Shown one piece after another: positions 8,046 through 20,635 of a stretch of 29,964 nt of DNA. Numbering within the stretch: the first letter of the stretch is position 1; each line of letters begins with the position of its first letter. The stretch is from IMG/VR virus record IMGVR_UViG_2778261393_000002. One strand, given 5' to 3'. Origin of the DNA: a virus. Taxonomy: Duplodnaviria; Heunggongvirae; Uroviricota; Caudoviricetes. Both the position numbers and the translations under genes were made by a program. The notes under the pieces were generated by a model. The model worked only from the letters and a program-made list of their open reading frames with translations, did no database searches and was not told the origin of the DNA.

Positions 8046-8912
8046 CTAAGCGAGGTTCTGGTTTTCAAATTGTTCCGGACTGAGGCCGCCACACCAACTG
8101 TGCCGCCGCCACCGATTGTAATCACATTCGATATAATTAAACACCGTTGCCCGCATTATTTCCCGGCTGATAAAGTGTTCTCCATGGATACATTCCACTT
8201 TCAGCGAATGAAAGAAGCTTTCCACGCAGGCATTATCGTAGCAGCAACCTTTTGCGCTCATACTTCCACGCAGATTATGCCGCTTCAGTTGCGCCTGATA
8301 ATCTGCTGAACAGTACTGGCCTCCACGGTCCGTGTGAACGATAACGTTCCAGGGCCTCTTACGCCGCCACAGCGCCATCTGCAGGGCATCGCAGGCCAGT
8401 TGCGCCGTCATGCGTGGCGACATTGACCAGCCAATAACGGCACGTGACCACAGGTCAATGACCACTGCCAGATACAGCCAGCCTTCATCTGTACGTAAGT
8501 ACGTGATGTCTCCTGCCCACTTCTGGTTCGGGCCACTGGCGTAAAAATCCTGCTCCAACAGATTTTCTGACACAGGCAGGCCGTGTGCGCGGTAGCTGAC
8601 CGGGCTGAACTTCCGGGAGGCCTTTGCCCTCAGTCCCTGACGGCGCAGGCTTGCCGCCACGGTTTTTTCGTTAAAGGGGTAACCCTGAGCACGCAGTTCA
8701 TCCGTCAGGCGTGGGGCACCGTAACGCTGTTTTGACCGGGTAAAAGCCGCGAGGACAACGCTGTCGCAGTGTTGGCGGAACTGCTGACGCGTGCTTATCC
8801 TTGTCCGCCGCTGACACCACGTATACCAGCCGCTGCGGGCCACCCGGAGCACGCGGCACATTGCTTTGATGCTGAACTCAGCCTGATGTTTTTCAATAAA
8901 GACATACTTCAT
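8046..8912 (-). CDS. insF: IS3 transposase OrfB
   Basis: 288 aa with DDE transposase/integrase core (WAGDITYL ... HTDRGGQY ... [11 protein letters not shown]). Matches IS3 InsF as remembered. Confidence 0.95.
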
Positions 8913-9217
8913 TTCAGGCGCTTCGCGAAGTATGTCGCGGCCTTTTGGAGGATAGCCAGCTCTTCATCCCGTTCTGCCAGCTGGCGTTTGAGACGTGCAA
9001 TCTCGGTAGACATCTCCAGTTCACGTTCAGAAGACGTCTGCTGATTTTGCTGTTTACTGCGCCAGTTGTAGAGCTGTGATTCATACAGGCTGAGTTCACG
9101 GGCTGCGGCAGTAACACCGATGCGTTCAGCAAGCTTCAGGGCTTCACTGCGAAATTCAGGCGAATGCTGTTTACGGGGTTTTTTACTGGTTGATACTGTT
9201 TTTGTCATGTGAGTCAC
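8909..9217 (-). CDS. insE: IS3 transposase OrfA (HTH)
   Basis: 102 aa ending in a leucine-zipper-like segment. Its stop overlaps the orfB ATG in the -1 frame, as expected for IS3-family programmed frameshifting. Confidence 0.95.
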
Positions 9218-10005: not shown

Positions 10006-10299
10006 ATGAAAAAAACGCTACTCACTTTCACGCTGGCCCTGCTTATCTCTGGATGTGCTCAACAGACGTTTACTGTTGAAAACCAACCGACAACAGTAAC
10101 ACCGAAGGAAACCATCACTCATCATTTCTTCGTTTCTGGAATTGGTCAGAAGAAAACTGTCGATGCAGCCAAAATTTGTGGTGGCGCAGAAAAAGTTGTT
10201 AAGACTGAAACCCAGCAAACATTCGTAAATGGATTGCTCGGTTTTATCACTTTCGGCATTTATACTCCGCTGGAAGCTCGGGTATATTGCTCACAATAA
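10006..10299 (+). CDS. bor: Bor lipoprotein (serum-resistance lipoprotein)
   Basis: 97 aa with signal peptide and lipobox LISGC. Sequence near-identical to lambda Bor/BorD as recalled. Convergent with the lysis genes as in lambda. Confidence 0.85.
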   Translation: MKKTLLTFTLALLISGCAQQTFTVENQPTTVTPKETITHHFFVSGIGQKKTVDAAKICGGAEKVVKTETQQTFVNGLLGFITFGIYTPLEARVYCSQ

Positions 10300-12003: not shown

Positions 12004-12747
12004 TTATTCTTGAGTAACACTTAAACTCATCTCATTGAATGCAGCCATCCTGTAACCTGCCGGTGTAACACCAAAATAACTCCTGAATACGCTGATAAAA
12101 TAAGATGTAAAATTATAGCCACACTGAGCAGCGATTCTGTTGATGGCGCAACGAGATTGATTCAACAGCATTGCTGCCATTCTCATTCTCTCTGTAAGCA
12201 ACAACTCACTGAAACAGGTGCCTTCTTCTTTCAGTCTTTTTTTTAACAAACTTTCACTGATACATAACCGCGAAGACACATCTCTCAGAGTCCAGTTTGC
12301 TGCAATGTCCGTACGAAACAATGCACTAAGCCTGTCACTAATATTGCCAATACACGCGGTCAGAAACGACGAAAACATTTTCTCTGATGAGAAAAACGCC
12401 AGACACGAAAAGGAAAGCATTTCCGCTAAATTGTCCGTATGAATCTTTTCCTCACAAAGATAATCAATCAGGATGCCCATCAATTCTGCCTTGGGAAAAC
12501 TCACGCAAAGATATCGTGGTATTTGCCGGACTAAAACTACATCCTGTTTTTCGTCTCCACACAACAGGTAACGGATAATTGTCGATTCACTGAGACTTAT
12601 TCGCCGAAAACATTCCGAAAAGGGCAATAACGATCCAGCTCCCCCCCTGACAAGAAGTGCACTACCACTTTCCAGAGAGAGCTCTTTTCCTTCAAAGAGC
12701 ACAACAAACGGGGAATGAACAAAAACAACAGAACAAGCTTCATTCAT
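12004..12747 (-). CDS. AraC-family transcriptional regulator, AppY/GadX-like
   Basis: C-terminal AraC HTH signature (SESLLKKRLKEEGTCFSELLLTERMRMAAMLLNQSRCAINRIAAQCGYNFTSYFISVFRSYFGVTPAGY). N-terminal CSVVF motif shared with DLP12 AppY as recalled. Start taken at MNEACSVVF. Confidence 0.8.
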   Translation of the reverse strand: MNEACSVVFVHSPFVVLFEGKELSLESGSALLVRGGAGSLLPFSECFRRISLSESTIIRYLLCGDEKQDVVLVRQIPRYLCVSFPKAELMGILIDYLCEEKIHTDNLAEMLSFSCLAFFSSEKMFSSFLTACIGNISDRLSALFRTDIAANWTLRDVSSRLCISESLLKKRLKEEGTCFSELLLTERMRMAAMLLNQSRCAINRIAAQCGYNFTSYFISVFRSYFGVTPAGYRMAAFNEMSLSVTQE

Positions 12748-12969
12748 ATCAATTGCCCTGACATTACTGGTCACAAGATAAGTATATATCGATTTACAAA
12801 AATACAAGCCGAAAGACCAGTATTCGCAACCACCAGCGCGTTTAACGTCCTGTACCGTTTTTCAGGCATAAAAAACCCGCTCAGTGGCGGGTTTAAGCTG
12901 TTTGGCGTAGTAACCACTCTTAACAGGATATTCAACTTTTTACGATCGTAAAGCGTTCGGGGAAAATTT

Positions 12970-14485: not shown

Positions 14486-15616
14486 TCATGCTTTCCACTT
14501 CAGGACACCCGAATTTCTCGCGTGCATTAAAAAACGAATCAGCAACAACAGCTGGCTGCCGTGTTTTTCTTCAAAATCTTTTACCCCGGCGTGCAGTTCG
14601 TTATGACATTTACGGCACAGCGGAATAACAAACAAATCATCAGCCTTTGTTCCCATCCCTCCCTGACCGTGACCAATCAGGTGATGGGGATCGTCGGCTG
14701 GTTGACCACAACACGCACACGGCTGTGTCTTCACCCAGCGCGTATATTTCTCATTTACCCAACGGCGACGTTTAGGTCGCCTCATGAAAGATTCCGGAGA
14801 CTCCGGATCAACGGTGATGCATACCACCGTCTTTTCCTGTGATGGGTTTTGTTGCTGGTGGGCGTGAGGCAACGGTGCAAGATTTTTTGTGCGCTGTTTC
14901 AATATGCTGGTGGCGGTCTGCTCTCCCGGTACGATGTCGCTTTCGCGGTACACCGAGCAGTTTTTTTCCGCTGGTAATCCCAGCGAGCGACGTAATACCG
15001 CTTCCGGTAGCGCGTCCGCCACCTGATTGCGGACCGCCCACCAGGATAATTCAGCCAGAGATAATTCACGCTCCTGCGTACCGCTTATTGCGTGACCGAT
15101 GACGTCAATCATCCATGCTGACAGGTTTTGATGAGCAAGCTGCCCGAGTGATTCGGATGTCTGGTCACGCAACTGGTTGTCGCAGTGCCAGCACAACACC
15201 ATCGCGCCGGTACCGTAACGATGTATGACGATTTCACTGTGATGATAGTCACCATGAGGCCACTGGCAGGATTTGACATGACGCAACAGCCAGTCAGACA
15301 GTGCCCCAGCGCCGCCAGCAGCACGAATCACCCGCTCATCGCTGAAAAATGGCAGTAATGATTTATCCTCCGCCAGCGGCTGGCGAACGGCAGGGACGAC
15401 TCCGGACGGCAGACCGCGCATGCTTTTCGGTTCAGGCTCCACCAGCACTCGAGGGTTATGAAATACTTGCATGGATTCACGGCCCGGCCTAAGGACCACC
15501 AGCCCAAGTTCCGGTACCAGAACAGGTCGAAGTAATATCCGCACGTTACCTCCAGATCCGTTGCTGGTATGTGCGGGATGGGCGCGGTGGGCGTTCGGAA
15601 TAAGGGAGCCTGACAT
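14486..15616 (-). CDS. DUF968-domain protein, YdfU-like
   Basis: C-terminal Cys/His-rich domain (CACCGQPADDPHHL ... IPLCRKCHNELH) typical of DUF968 proteins in lambdoid nin regions. N-terminal start uncertain (M1 at 15616 overlaps the upstream ORF; alternative Met at 15472). Confidence 0.7.
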   Translation of the reverse strand: MSGSLIPNAHRAHPAHTSNGSGGNVRILLRPVLVPELGLVVLRPGRESMQVFHNPRVLVEPEPKSMRGLPSGVVPAVRQPLAEDKSLLPFFSDERVIRAAGGAGALSDWLLRHVKSCQWPHGDYHHSEIVIHRYGTGAMVLCWHCDNQLRDQTSESLGQLAHQNLSAWMIDVIGHAISGTQERELSLAELSWWAVRNQVADALPEAVLRRSLGLPAEKNCSVYRESDIVPGEQTATSILKQRTKNLAPLPHAHQQQNPSQEKTVVCITVDPESPESFMRRPKRRRWVNEKYTRWVKTQPCACCGQPADDPHHLIGHGQGGMGTKADDLFVIPLCRKCHNELHAGVKDFEEKHGSQLLLLIRFLMHARNSGVLKWKA

Positions 15617-15824
15617 AGATTATCCAGTGACGATAATCGAGGCTGAGGGCTTTCTTAATCTCGTATCCGCGTCTGCGATAGTTATGAATTAGCCATTCGG
15701 CCTGTTCTTCAGTACATGGGTCATGCTGGAACCAGTCAGATTTGAAAGTGCGGGAACGCCGCCCGCGCCTGCTGGCAAAGACGGCAGAATCATCAGAATT
15801 GTGTAATTTGGTATCGTGCGCCAT
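15546..15824 (-). CDS. Small prophage protein, possibly Rem-like
   Basis: Start taken at MAHDTKLH (92 aa), so that it does not overlap the terminator at 15895-15921. Positional analogue of rem between ydfU and hok in K-12 Qin. Weak SD. Confidence 0.3.
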   Translation of the reverse strand: MAHDTKLHNSDDSAVFASRRGRRSRTFKSDWFQHDPCTEEQAEWLIHNYRRRGYEIKKALSLDYRHWIIYVRLPYSERPPRPSRTYQQRIWR

Positions 15825-15894
15825 CGGTTGTCTCTGCTGGCGCAGCAGGTGCCAGTTGTTCAGGCTGGCGTGCGAATTGTAAACCAGAATGCCA

Positions 15895-15921
15895 GGAAAA
15901 AACAAAACCCGCCGAAGCGGG
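15895..15921 (-). terminator. Rho-independent terminator, UUCG-loop hairpin plus U-run
   Basis: Minus strand reads CCCGC UUCG GCGGG followed by TTTTGTTTTTT (plus 15895-15921). Confidence 0.5.
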
Positions 15922-16120
15922 TATGCTAAAACAAACTGAAAGTAATATACCGGACTTGTAAAGGAACGATAGAATAATTATTGGATTAAACCCTGACTCA
16001 ATCCAGATTTCATAGGCAACAACTACGGACTAATCATCACAGTCATGTTTGATAGGCTTAGTCCACATTGGGTGAGGGTTTACGGCGTTTTCACTAATAA
16101 TTTATCGTCCAAGCTATACA

Positions 16121-16513
16121 CTACTGCCCTGTTTTAACGAAGTTTTTAAAGGAAACAACTGCCTGATAGGGGTTTGGTTGACAGCCAAACATATTATCGC
16201 AAAAAGGCTTGATGAAAATTCTTGAGGATCCATCTTCATTTGGCATTTTACTCACTTGATAAGCGAGGAATGGACTATTTGGAGAGGGATTATAAGTGGA
16301 AATTAGCGTGTCTGTCGCCGTTTGAATTTTCCATGAGGAATTATTAGCCAACCAGAATTGCGCTCGTTTCCAATAAAAGTCACATTGCTTTTCATCATTA
16401 CATGTTAGTGGCTTCATTGCTTCTGCTTTCAACGCTGGATCGACCTTTGCTGCACACCCTCCCAACATTACTGTTGCAATCATTACACCTGCGACTAAAA
16501 CAAGTTTCTTCAT
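16121..16513 (-). CDS. Lipoprotein of unknown function (moron)
   Basis: 130 aa with signal peptide and lipobox (MKKLVLVAGVMIATVMLGGCAAK). Mature part has four Cys. Flanking DNA looks AT-rich by eye. Confidence 0.65.
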   Translation of the reverse strand: MKKLVLVAGVMIATVMLGGCAAKVDPALKAEAMKPLTCNDEKQCDFYWKRAQFWLANNSSWKIQTATDTLISTYNPSPNSPFLAYQVSKMPNEDGSSRIFIKPFCDNMFGCQPNPYQAVVSFKNFVKTGQ

Positions 16514-16656
16514 CTCCCTGCCCCATCAATAAAAGTTCGGTTCTCTAATAACTAGAGTTAATCAACGGAAAAAACGCCGAAGCGGGTTAAGTGCGGGTGC
16601 GTTGAGGATGCCTGACACATCAGAGGTGGCGAGGGATTTCTCCCCCGCCAGGTCTC

Positions 16657-16812
16657 TTACTCCTCAGGTTCGTAAGCTGTGAAGACAGCGACCTCCGTCT
16701 GGCCGGTTCGGATTCGTACCTCGCAGAGGTCTTTCCTCGTTACCAGTGCCGTCACAATGACGGTTAAACAGATGACGATCAGGGCGATTAACATCGCCTT
16801 TTGCTGCTTCAT
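16657..16812 (-). CDS. hokD: Hok/Gef-family type I toxin
   Basis: 51 aa MKQQKAMLIALIVICLTVIVTALVTRKDLCEVRIRTGQTEVAVFTAYEPEE with AAGGAG SD, matching HokD/RelF as recalled. An overlapping upstream frame (to 16869) is the mok-like reading frame. Confidence 0.85.
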   Translation of the reverse strand: MKQQKAMLIALIVICLTVIVTALVTRKDLCEVRIRTGQTEVAVFTAYEPEE

Positions 16813-17023
16813 AGCCTGCTTCTCCTTGCCTTTCGGCACGTAAGAGGCTAACCTAGATTTGCCGTTCATAGATTGAGCCTCAGATTAATGTTAAGCGTCT
16901 TGCAGGACGCGTAATGTTAACTGGGGCTTTTCTCTATCTGCCTTTGGTGTTCATGCCTGAGACAGATAGCCTCAAGCACCCGCAGCCATTCTACTTAACT
17001 CCCGTTACCTCGCCAATATAAAA

Positions 17024-17445: not shown

Positions 17446-18699
17446 TTACATTTTATCAATTTCAGAAATGATCCTATCAATTTCATCAATGCTTGCTTGA
17501 ATTGTTAGATTATTTTTTATTATCTCAAGTAATTCTATTGCTCTTCTTTTGGGCCTTGATGACACCAGTTCTGAATTTGCTCTTTCATTCTCCACGAACA
17601 ACCGTGAGAGAGCCATCAATTGATTACTATTTAACACATCTAAAAATGGTTGAAGTACTAAATGTGCATCAGATCTTCCCCAGTAATTCCCCACCCAAAC
17701 AGTAAGTATTTCTTGATATACATCTTCAAATGCAATAGATGGAACATGAGGTCCAAATTGTATAAGTGCCTTGGCTGCTCTTTCTTCATCATTCCAGCCG
17801 TAAGATGTATCCTTAGCTTTAGCTAGCTGTTTAACCGCATGTCTGTATAAACTTGCCCTAGCAGCATCAGGTATAAATTTCACACCATTAACTTTTACTA
17901 AAGTCTCTAAAATTCTTATTTTTGCTCCTTTATCCTCACTTGTATCCGATTCGGGCTCCAGCATAAATGAGTGATATCTTTCCCCCGCTGTTTTTTTAAG
18001 GTCATCATTAGATCTTTCCCATGCTTGTTCAAACAACTTGCTAGCATTAACATAAGCAGGATTTTCCCCCTTAGTTATTAAATCCAATAAAAATCCAAAT
18101 GTTATTCTTATATCAGCTTGCTTAAATGCTCTTATTTGATCTTTAAGTAAGTCTATGCTCTCAATTGATAGTTCAGATTTTTTTATGGGTTCAAATAATC
18201 CAGATGGCGAATGTCCAGGGTCTGGCATATCAGATTCGAATAAATTCTTCTGGAGCATAAGAGCCAAAGCAAACACATCCTCAGACTCTACTTTACTATC
18301 ACTTGCATGGGCTGGAGAGGCATGGTTTCTCATCCAATTGATCATTTCTAATGATTTTCCAGCTTTCTTATGCAGAACCCCTAATTTGGTGGCTCCACTT
18401 ATTAGCACTAAATCATCTACACCTGACCATCTCTCGTTTATTGTTTCACCATCTTTATCATATTTTTTACGACCACTATCATCCTTTATTGCGGAAAGGA
18501 ATAAGTCTAAACCATAAGCCTCAATTCGCCGCCTAAGATTATGAATGGATGCATTCCATATATCTAAAAGAGCATGATCAGGGAAGCCAGAATCTAACAA
18601 CTTTCTAGCTTGCGAAAGGAATTCTATTTCAGTATTAACTGTTGCAGGAAAATTAGTTGTTGATGGCGAGCTTAATAAAACCGGGAGATTTTTTGACAT
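17446..18699 (-). CDS. Hypothetical protein, 417 aa (cargo gene B, candidate defence effector)
   Basis: Long uninterrupted ORF in an AT-rich segment with SD AAGGAAA upstream. No family recognised. Contains an R-x6-H motif (MRNHASPAH) of the kind seen in HEPN RNases. Confidence 0.8.
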   Translation of the reverse strand: MSKNLPVLLSSPSTTNFPATVNTEIEFLSQARKLLDSGFPDHALLDIWNASIHNLRRRIEAYGLDLFLSAIKDDSGRKKYDKDGETINERWSGVDDLVLISGATKLGVLHKKAGKSLEMINWMRNHASPAHASDSKVESEDVFALALMLQKNLFESDMPDPGHSPSGLFEPIKKSELSIESIDLLKDQIRAFKQADIRITFGFLLDLITKGENPAYVNASKLFEQAWERSNDDLKKTAGERYHSFMLEPESDTSEDKGAKIRILETLVKVNGVKFIPDAARASLYRHAVKQLAKAKDTSYGWNDEERAAKALIQFGPHVPSIAFEDVYQEILTVWVGNYWGRSDAHLVLQPFLDVLNSNQLMALSRLFVENERANSELVSSRPKRRAIELLEIIKNNLTIQASIDEIDRIISEIDKM

Positions 18700-19312: not shown

Positions 19313-20434
19313 TTAGAGCTTATAAAGTTCAATTAATCTGGATTTTTCTCTGTCAAATTCTTCATCAAGATTTGAGAAGTCTGGAAGTGTAACCATTAAA
19401 TCCTTAAGTTGATGAATAACATTCCAGACATCGTAATGAATAAAGGGATTTAAGCCAATTACATTCCCCTCATCATTATTTTTAGATTTCCCTACACCAC
19501 ACAATTTGATGAATTTGTTGATTGCAGTTGTTTCATTCCAGTCCGAGACAAAAAGAAGCAAGGCAGATACAGCCAAAAGGGGGTTATTTTTTTTAACAGC
19601 GGATATACCCCTGATTTTCCTAAAAAGAAATTCGTGATGCCTGGTTATTTTTTGTGCAACTCTTATCGTTGCTTCATATTTTTCTTTAAGCAACCTTCTA
19701 TCATAAACCTGATAACCTCGATCTCGTGCTACTAATCGATGTGCTTGTTTAGTAAATGTGGTACTATTCACAAGATTATAGAAAACAGAATTATTTTCAT
19801 TAGTCATGTCGATCATCAATGATGGATATTTGAATCTTAACGAACGATACACTTCATCGTTTATATCAAACCAGGATTTATTTTTCCTCTCTTCATCTAC
19901 AATATATTTACTTTCTCCCTTACGGGAATACATGCTGGCCCTTATTAGATTGATCATGTGAGGGCTATAGTTAACAGAAAAAGTGCCTGACTGGCGTAAT
20001 TCTGTAAACCATTGCCGCATGTTTCGAATATCTTCCTGATTGAACTCATCATGTTCAATACCTCTACATACAAGCTCGCGAATTATACTTGTAATCTCAG
20101 AACCTGAGGTGCCGAATTTTATAAAACCATCCCTTGATGAATCTATTTGCTTATCATTACCACTGTAATGATCGCAAAATACTTTGTGTGCATCAGTTCC
20201 GTCTTTTGTTCTAAACGAAAAATGAGATTGGCTGACTATCTTATTTGTTCTTTTCGAATAACCTTCTGAAACAACAATCGCACCGCTTACATTGCAAATT
20301 GGGCACTCTGCATCAAAGGCAACAAATTCCTTGAAATCACTGAAATTGAGTGCGTTATCTGATGAGTAATGGTTTAACAATTGAACCATGTCCAATTCCT
20401 TTTTGAATGTACGAGAATAGACCGTAATTGCCAT
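19313..20434 (-). CDS. Hypothetical protein, 373 aa (cargo gene A)
   Basis: Start taken at MAITVYS (codon 20432-20434) with SD AAGGGAG 7 nt upstream. No family recognised. N-terminal Cys/His cluster (ECPICNVSG ... HKVFCDHY). Confidence 0.8.
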   Translation of the reverse strand: MAITVYSRTFKKELDMVQLLNHYSSDNALNFSDFKEFVAFDAECPICNVSGAIVVSEGYSKRTNKIVSQSHFSFRTKDGTDAHKVFCDHYSGNDKQIDSSRDGFIKFGTSGSEITSIIRELVCRGIEHDEFNQEDIRNMRQWFTELRQSGTFSVNYSPHMINLIRASMYSRKGESKYIVDEERKNKSWFDINDEVYRSLRFKYPSLMIDMTNENNSVFYNLVNSTTFTKQAHRLVARDRGYQVYDRRLLKEKYEATIRVAQKITRHHEFLFRKIRGISAVKKNNPLLAVSALLLFVSDWNETTAINKFIKLCGVGKSKNNDEGNVIGLNPFIHYDVWNVIHQLKDLMVTLPDFSNLDEEFDREKSRLIELYKL

Positions 20435-20635
20435 TTGAACTCCCTTCATCATAATTTTGGTTGTATGAAATATTATCGCATAAAGATACTAATGAGCCAG
20501 TAATATAACTAGAAACGACTTTTTGTGGTTCAGCGAACTAGACGTCCGCTCCTGGCACAAAGCGGACAACCACGCTAGCTCTACCCTGTGCCACAAAATG
20601 TCAATTTGCATCTGAACTAATGCACTTTAATCTCG

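Follow-up and report, generated by a model that had tools for sequence, protein, structure and literature searches.

Analysis of the window, by which we mean the whole stretch of 29,964 nucleotides, identified a lipoprotein gene carried on a 665-bp moron cassette that has recombined into the hok/sok terminator hairpin of a Rac/Qin-type lambdoid prophage. The product is a putative periplasm-facing outer-membrane protein that would alter the cell envelope, and its most likely effect, suggested here tentatively from genomic context, is the exclusion of other phages. The lipoprotein features of the protein, its predicted structure and the moron status of the gene are considerably more secure. Prophage lipoprotein morons are a known kind of element, and to our knowledge only a handful of small families (Cor, Llp, Bor, and Ltp) account for those whose function has been proven. 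The family described here is uncharacterized and unrelated to the known ones. Its E. coli member has a confident predicted fold and occurs in roughly one sequenced E. coli strain in 20, while the family as a whole includes more than 1000 sequence clusters, with phages repeatedly placing the gene behind the repressor or beside the tail-tip gene. The features of the locus are summarized in Table 1.

Table 1. Features of the lipoprotein cassette and the adjoining hok/sok unit, in window coordinates.
Feature	Position	Strand	Basis
Lipoprotein precursor gene, 130 aa, ATG start, stop codon 16121-16123	16121..16513	-	ORF list; phrog_16082; purifying selection
Signal peptide, residues 1-19 (MKKLVLVAGVMIATVMLGG)	16457..16513	-	Read from sequence
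Lipobox L-G-G-C codons (putative lipidated Cys20, 16454-16456)	16454-16465	-	Read from sequence
Mature domain, residues 20-130 (111 residues), predicted	16124..16456	-	AlphaFold2
Leader, 61 nt, from truncated hok terminator to ATG, with GGGG/GGGAG Shine-Dalgarno region	16514..16574	-	
3' untranslated part of cassette, 198 nt, GC 0.37	15923..16120	-	
Terminator hairpin ACCCGCTTCGGCGGGT, followed by T-run	15922-15907	-	Terminator scan
Distal junction: intrinsic terminator, intact, with stem ACCCGC/GCGGGT and loop TTCG, followed by TTTTGTTTTTT	15897..15922	-	
Proximal junction: hok terminator remnant, ACCCGCTTCGGCG then TTTTTT	16569..16587	-	Alignment with UTI89 empty site
hok/sok unit directly upstream: hokD, mok-like ORF, 5' tac, 3' fbi	16593..16981	-	Pfam, Rfam, fold
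hokD CDS	16657-16812	-	Pfam HOK_GEF, E 3e-23; coordinate transfer from 99.9% identical annotated genome
mok-like ORF overlapping hokD	to 16869	-	
sok	16807-16981		Rfam, 110 bits
fbi element, 3' (CCTCAACGCACCCGC)	16593-16607	-	

The N-terminus of the protein, MKKLVLVAGVMIATVMLGGC, consists of a basic n-region, a hydrophobic core and the lipobox L17-G18-G19-C20 (MLGGC20), in agreement with the first-pass annotation, which had described the 130-residue product as a lipoprotein with a clear lipobox. The precursor can be written as MKK-LVLVAGVMIATVM-LGGC20 and carries a signal for SPase II (lipobox pattern tested, [LVI][ASTVI][GAS]C), with Cys20 as the residue that would be lipidated and become the first of the mature protein. 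Five cysteines are present in total (positions 20, 38, 44, 105, and 111), of which the last four belong to the mature domain beyond the lipid cysteine, the number that the same annotation had given. Asp at position +2 is the Lol avoidance signal in Enterobacteriaceae; the +2 residue here is Ala rather than Asp, and judged from its sequence the lipoprotein is probably located in the outer membrane. The gene had also been called AT-rich, and the GC content of the ORF is indeed 0.402 (GC3 0.366) and that of the whole cassette 0.39, compared with 0.535 in the left flank (DUF968 side), 0.523 in the hok region and 0.464 in the window. The protein is identical to RefSeq WP_000737634.1, labelled "hypothetical protein", and the CDS is annotated in the same way in NZ_CP005930 and in phage ON470583. 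An identity as o-spanin was rejected, since the gene does not belong to the lysis cassette and its product is globular without being rich in proline.

The empty site was found in UTI89, where hokD adjoins a 92-aa gene that precedes DUF968/ydfU, and the same arrangement was observed in many other genomes. Two window segments, 15601-15922 and 16569-17000, map to one uninterrupted UTI89 sequence and overlap there by 19 bp, leaving a window surplus of 665 bp. These 19 bp correspond to the terminator hairpin of hok, ACCCGCTTCGGCGGGTTTT, and the cassette lies between the hok mRNA body and its terminator. It is inserted between genes that are adjacent in relatives, has a GC content of 0.39-0.40 against 0.52-0.54 in the flanks, and ends in a terminator of its own (the hairpin and T-run at 15897-15922), though this is the hok terminator re-used. 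The hokD/92-aa-gene intergenic site (window 15923-16574; loci L003, L004, and L018) is variably empty or loaded across E. coli prophages, and is a recurrent cargo slot because other cargo is found there elsewhere, namely rem in a Qin-like prophage and, in strain 720632, a doc-family toxin gene behind a small unannotated ORF. The full region is carried by about 250 of 5426 complete E. coli genomes (~4.6%), and thousands have the flanks only. In the Pantoea phage loci, a near-identical hairpin (AACCCGCTTCGGCGGGTTTTT) precedes the gene together with a conserved 45-nt leader, and the arrangement in E. coli would most simply have arisen by recombination between look-alike terminators. The earlier description of the gene as a lipoprotein moron is thus strongly supported by the empty site, the mapped junctions, the cargo found in the slot, the foreign GC content and the occurrence of relatives in other phage slots. 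A role in the hok/sok system itself was rejected, as the empty site shows that hok works without the lipoprotein. The insertion in the hok terminator represents a clean case of cargo hitching onto an existing, constitutively transcribed unit.

Both elements reported by the first-pass annotation to bracket the gene, hok and a terminator hairpin, were recovered by the Pfam and Rfam matches and the terminator scan. The lipoprotein gene starts 143 nt past hokD, and the intact terminator lies 199 nt past its stop. This distal terminator (folding energy -13.1 kcal/mol, z -3.5) matches the UTI89 sequence and is the original hok terminator of the empty site. At the proximal junction, two G are gone from the right stem arm and the hairpin is not formed (-5.5 kcal/mol, z -0.1). 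Proximal truncation combined with an intact distal copy was observed in 55 of the 56 gene-bearing E. coli loci from IMG/VR viral contigs. The hok mRNA body is unaltered, the 5' tac pairing with fbi in the minimum-energy fold (z -8.3). In the hok mRNA (16569-16607, minus strand) the tac-fbi pairing is therefore kept while the terminator is truncated by the insertion, and hok transcripts should now be ~650 nt longer, which may bear on the 3' processing by which hok mRNA is activated. The last 45 nt of the leader align gap-free to the leader that accompanies the gene in Pantoea phages, and ~70 nt of the 3' untranslated part are absent from some E. coli copies. An Rfam scan of the 3' untranslated part and the leader gave no match at gathering score.

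The hok promoter is constitutive, and the genes of the nin region all lie in the antiterminated early rightward transcript. Because the upstream hairpin is crippled and the next good terminator is found past the lipoprotein gene, the hok/sok unit is the likely source of read-through transcription into this gene. In the lysogen, transcription would come mainly from such read-through and stop at the intact distal terminator, and in the lytic cycle the early rightward transcript would cover the gene as well. A consensus scan from hok to the ATG identified no sigma-70-like site. The 45-nt Pantoea leader contains TGATAGGAT, an extended -10-like element kept across three insertion contexts (L006 7900-8000; L076; L077 3880-3982), where the window has AGTTATTAG (TATTAG), without the final T. 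These differences could mean that the gene is silent or decaying cargo, intact but effectively unexpressed, with the promoter-like element of the Pantoea copies degenerate in the window; the lack of a sigma-70-like site upstream and a Shine-Dalgarno GGGAG that abuts the ATG are consistent with this. We nevertheless find it very improbable, as the E. coli copies, from ~250 genomes and 55 viral contigs, have an intact ORF with 95-100% identity, read-through from hok should be possible past the truncated upstream terminator, and selection on the family is strongly purifying, as described below.

The protein matches phrog_16082 over its full length (E 2.6e-84, residues 1-130 of 130) and phrog_4186 more weakly (E 2.2e-8); among 83 relatives scanned, all 83 match the former and 74 the latter. 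A profile search retrieved 1141 cluster representatives at E <= 0.001, 532 of them at E <= 1e-10. Homologues with 66-85% identity were identified in Enterobacter, Pantoea, and Phytobacter, and these together with the Citrobacter group gave dN values of 0.06-0.25 with saturated dS. Omega was 0.04-0.05 in the two close-homologue pairs for which it was computable and 0.17-0.36 in four distant pairs, which indicates that the family is under strong purifying selection. The mature domain is conserved, with ~45% identity between E. coli and Burkholderiales members, and the signal peptides diverge freely among homologues. A strict lipobox is present in 123 of the 147 top-listed family representatives, the others being mostly lipobox variants or N-terminally truncated fragments. 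Position +2 in these 123 members is occupied by Ala in 97 cases, by V, N, S, T, C, G, L, or Q in the others and by Asp in none, and exactly four cysteines beyond the lipid cysteine are found in 106. C38, C44, and C105 do not vary across the family, and the conservation of C111 exceeds 90%; the conserved polar positions include D45, R50, N58, S59, K62, D68, and T73. A C-terminal PDZ domain of the DegP/DegS/RseP type was identified in 12 of the 83 scanned relatives (~15% of the top representatives). The PDZ-fused chromosomal relatives are ~230 aa in length, as exemplified by L011 6001-6834, where the gene is located behind der and yfgM-like genes.

The first-pass annotation did not recognize the family, and this was justified by the database searches. 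Pfam and NCBIfam scans of the lipoprotein gave no match, nor did PADLOC models at E <= 0.1. In the Pfam scan of the 83 diverse relatives the core domain was likewise unmatched and only PDZ was found, on the longer forms. Searching PDB sequences returned noise with the single sequence, and with the profile matched only DegP/DegQ/DegS/RseP through the PDZ columns. The literature search, by accession and otherwise, found no paper on the family, and all sources call the protein hypothetical. A close-alignment scan of species-representative genomes gave no confirmed locus, and scans of viral contigs with distant members gave few loci or none; tblastn with distant members against isolated phage genomes returned only two E. 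coli phages already known, and a word-index search with wide alignment added little. The lipoprotein is thus the E. coli member of a family that has no name and no close characterized relative, although its fold is of a common class.

AlphaFold2 predicted the mature domain with a pLDDT of 84 from 12 sequences, and with a pLDDT of 94.1 and a pTM of 0.82 from 91 diverse sequences (91-94 over the five models). Both runs gave the same beta-alpha-beta4-alpha topology, predicted as beta(36-38), alpha(41-58), beta(63-66), beta(70-73), beta(80-91), beta(97-106), and alpha(115-128). The cysteines form two CxxxxxC motifs (C38/C44 and C105/C111), each placed at a strand-to-helix turn in the model. Structure prediction had been suggested earlier as a check on the gene; it yielded this confident fold, but no Foldseek match to a known exclusion protein, as nothing was retrieved from PDB or BFVD at E <= 0.001. 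The nearest resemblances are to Francisella Flpp3 (DUF3568) and the N-domain of BamC, with 11-13% identity, Foldseek E values of ~0.01-0.04 and no corresponding Pfam match. Since KA1 and START/Bet v 1 domains score similarly, this resemblance reflects fold class rather than family membership.

Phage regions make up 10 of the 12 distinct neighbourhoods of relatives examined, and at least four kinds of slot are used; because of this the family can be said to behave as mobile cargo with a self-contained function. The slot directly behind cI is the position of rexAB in lambda. Citrobacter-type relatives (43-47% identity) are found 46-73 bp downstream of a CI-type HTH-S24 repressor gene on the same strand, and the cI-linked relatives have three different repressor alleles (L012-14 and L082-83; L080; L010). 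Relatives in L015, L017, and L087 are located in other immunity or early regions. The Pantoea-type relatives (76-85% identity) occur in lambda-like tail-tip modules by gpI/gpJ (L077/78, L075, and L006/76) in three arrangements, K-I-gene-J, gene-lipoprotein-I-J, and ant-gene-x-x-I-J, in which "gene" is the family member. The L086 relative is found in a phiJL001-like tail module and the Phytobacter copy in a prophage remnant, while the stand-alone L085 copy and one PDZ fusion are chromosomal with no phage genes nearby. In two unrelated phages a second, different small lipoprotein gene adjoins the family member (L075 4374-4784, phrog_890; L015 6662-6997, phrog_10370).

Slots behind cI and beside the tail-tip gene are typical for superinfection-exclusion genes. 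In T5, llp adjoins pb5 (PMC9586334), and cognate exclusion proteins are encoded downstream of gpJ homologues (PMC8594841). The known exclusion lipoproteins are encoded beside receptor-binding genes and work on the receptor from its periplasmic side (PMC9586334, PMC8594841). The gene for Ltp is part of a lysogeny module (PMC3952083), and genes downstream of cI are expressed by lysogens (PMC7067206). The first-pass annotation had suggested superinfection exclusion of the Cor or Llp kind. The placement of the relatives favors this indirectly, though in repeated instances; the homology does not, as the Cor PHROG covers the signal peptide only and Llp, which is in the PDB, was not matched. On virulence, the other role that it had named, the results speak neither way.

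The window protein resembles Llp in being a phage-encoded, disulfide-containing lipoprotein expected at the inner leaflet of the outer membrane, and relatives of its gene adjoin a receptor-binding or tail-tip gene as llp adjoins pb5 (PMC9586334). Mature Llp, however, has 61 residues and one disulfide, whereas the window protein has 111 residues, four cysteines and a helix-grip-like predicted fold; Llp was outside the top fold matches and gave no PDB sequence match, and the E. coli gene is located in the nin region and not by a receptor-binding gene. Cor (phi80, N15, T1, and HK022; phrog_1119) is likewise a prophage lipoprotein encoded by a lysogenic-conversion gene in a small independent cassette, but the likeness to phrog_1119 is restricted to the signal peptide and lipobox (E 0.0071, residues 1-44 against profile positions 1-39 of 78), and Cor differs from the window protein in size and predicted fold. 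The window lipoprotein is twice the size of Llp and Cor. Ltp of the Streptococcus thermophilus phage TP-J34 is a lipoprotein of the lysogeny module that is expressed from the prophage and excludes superinfecting phages (PMC3952083), comparable to the cI-linked relatives; it is, however, a surface-exposed and unrelated protein of a Gram-positive host, and no search revealed any similarity to the window protein.

On this background the following mechanism is proposed. The precursor would be exported via Sec, lipidated and cleaved at Cys20, as expected from sequence rules, and would leave a compact alpha/beta domain of 111 residues facing the periplasm, stapled by two predicted disulfides. From its contexts, the lipoprotein may then modify the cell envelope to the benefit of the phage, by binding from the periplasm to a component that is located in the outer membrane or spans the envelope and on which other phages depend to adsorb or to bring in their DNA. 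Superinfecting phages would thereby be excluded, and progeny would be kept from adsorbing to lysed cells. The logic would be that of T5 Llp and phi80/T1 Cor, achieved by an unrelated and larger fold. Several observations speak against exclusion. No proven exclusion protein resembles the lipoprotein in sequence or closely in structure, PADLOC gave no match, and the E. coli gene is not linked to a receptor-binding gene. The chromosomal L085 copy and the PDZ-fused members point to a housekeeping periplasmic role of the ancestral domain, and such strong conservation of the mature domain across distant hosts is unusual for the partner of a fast-evolving receptor.

This conservation would fit exclusion better if the target is a conserved machine. 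The family might accordingly block phage entry by binding a conserved envelope machine (e.g., a TonB/Tol-dependent step, BAM, or Lpt) and not a receptor loop that varies, with the chromosomal PDZ-fused forms representing the ancestral host function; we regard this specific version as unlikely. If it were true, this structurally distinct family, with at least 1100 clusters at 50% identity, would constitute a class of superinfection exclusion that is new and acts broadly.

The same conservation also fits a conserved target of another kind. The lipoprotein could be a periplasmic inhibitor, immunity or adaptor protein that binds a periplasmic enzyme or toxin and neutralizes or modulates it, and thereby protects or tunes the host; candidates would be peptidoglycan hydrolases, effectors of type VI or bacteriocin kind, and proteases of the HtrA/Prc type. 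Small disulfide-stapled lipoproteins are typically immunity or inhibitor proteins, a type that the window protein fits, and the PDZ domains of DegP/DegS/RseP type, to which chromosomal relatives are fused, recognize protein C-termini in the periplasm. A stand-alone chromosomal copy also exists, and D45, R50, N58, S59, K62, D68, and T73 suggest a single conserved binding surface. An effector or toxin gene adjoins the lipoprotein gene in none of the contexts examined, however, the lysozyme-inhibitor and immunity families of Pfam and NCBIfam were unmatched, and the repeated sites behind cI and beside gpJ are more typical of phage-versus-phage functions. A role of this kind is in our view a doubtful prospect, and a housekeeping-type periplasmic adaptor would make the protein an ordinary hypothetical lipoprotein.

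Lambda Bor (PF06291) shares with the window protein the character of an outer-membrane lipoprotein moron of lambdoid prophages, and lambda keeps lom beside gpJ, a placement also seen for relatives of the window gene. The lipoprotein could by analogy be a Bor/TraT-type factor in host fitness or virulence that would, by lysogenic conversion, provide resistance to serum, adhesion or tolerance of stress, and avian-pathogenic and extraintestinal E. coli are common among the best matches. The Pfam model Lambda_Bor nevertheless misses the window lipoprotein, while it matches the genuine Bor encoded by the prophage itself at 10006-10299 (E 1.3e-30), which served as positive control. The family is moreover mostly environmental, with a wide distribution among environmental Proteobacteria and in plant-associated Pantoea, for which serum resistance has no relevance, and only ~4.6% of complete E. 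coli genomes carry the gene. A Bor/TraT-type function is on these grounds distinctly improbable. The Bor homologue, a 97-aa protein encoded on the plus strand, is located near the lysis genes, and since it is present besides the window lipoprotein, the prophage carries two different lipoprotein morons.

Exclusion of other phages, if it is the true function, would represent a new structural class of envelope-level phage resistance. It would bear on host-range prediction and phage therapy, and the target would provide a handle on how phages cross the envelope.

Further cargo was observed in the window. Two large AT-rich genes (GC 0.30-0.38), at 17446-18699 and 19313-20452 on the minus strand, encode proteins of 417 and 379 aa that match phrog_27609 and phrog_12525, respectively, and neither was matched by Pfam or PADLOC. 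They are located between DUF977 and hok, where related prophages have QueH, or RES and Lit exclusion genes, and are possibly an undescribed pair of defence cargo genes. A gene for an AraC-family regulator (HTH_18/HTH_AraC; 12004-12807, minus strand), situated between the Q region and the lysis genes, is probably another moron. Finally, an IS3-family transposase gene (rve, HTH_21; 8046-9217, minus strand) was identified as an insertion in the late region, with the lysis genes on one side and the packaging genes on the other.
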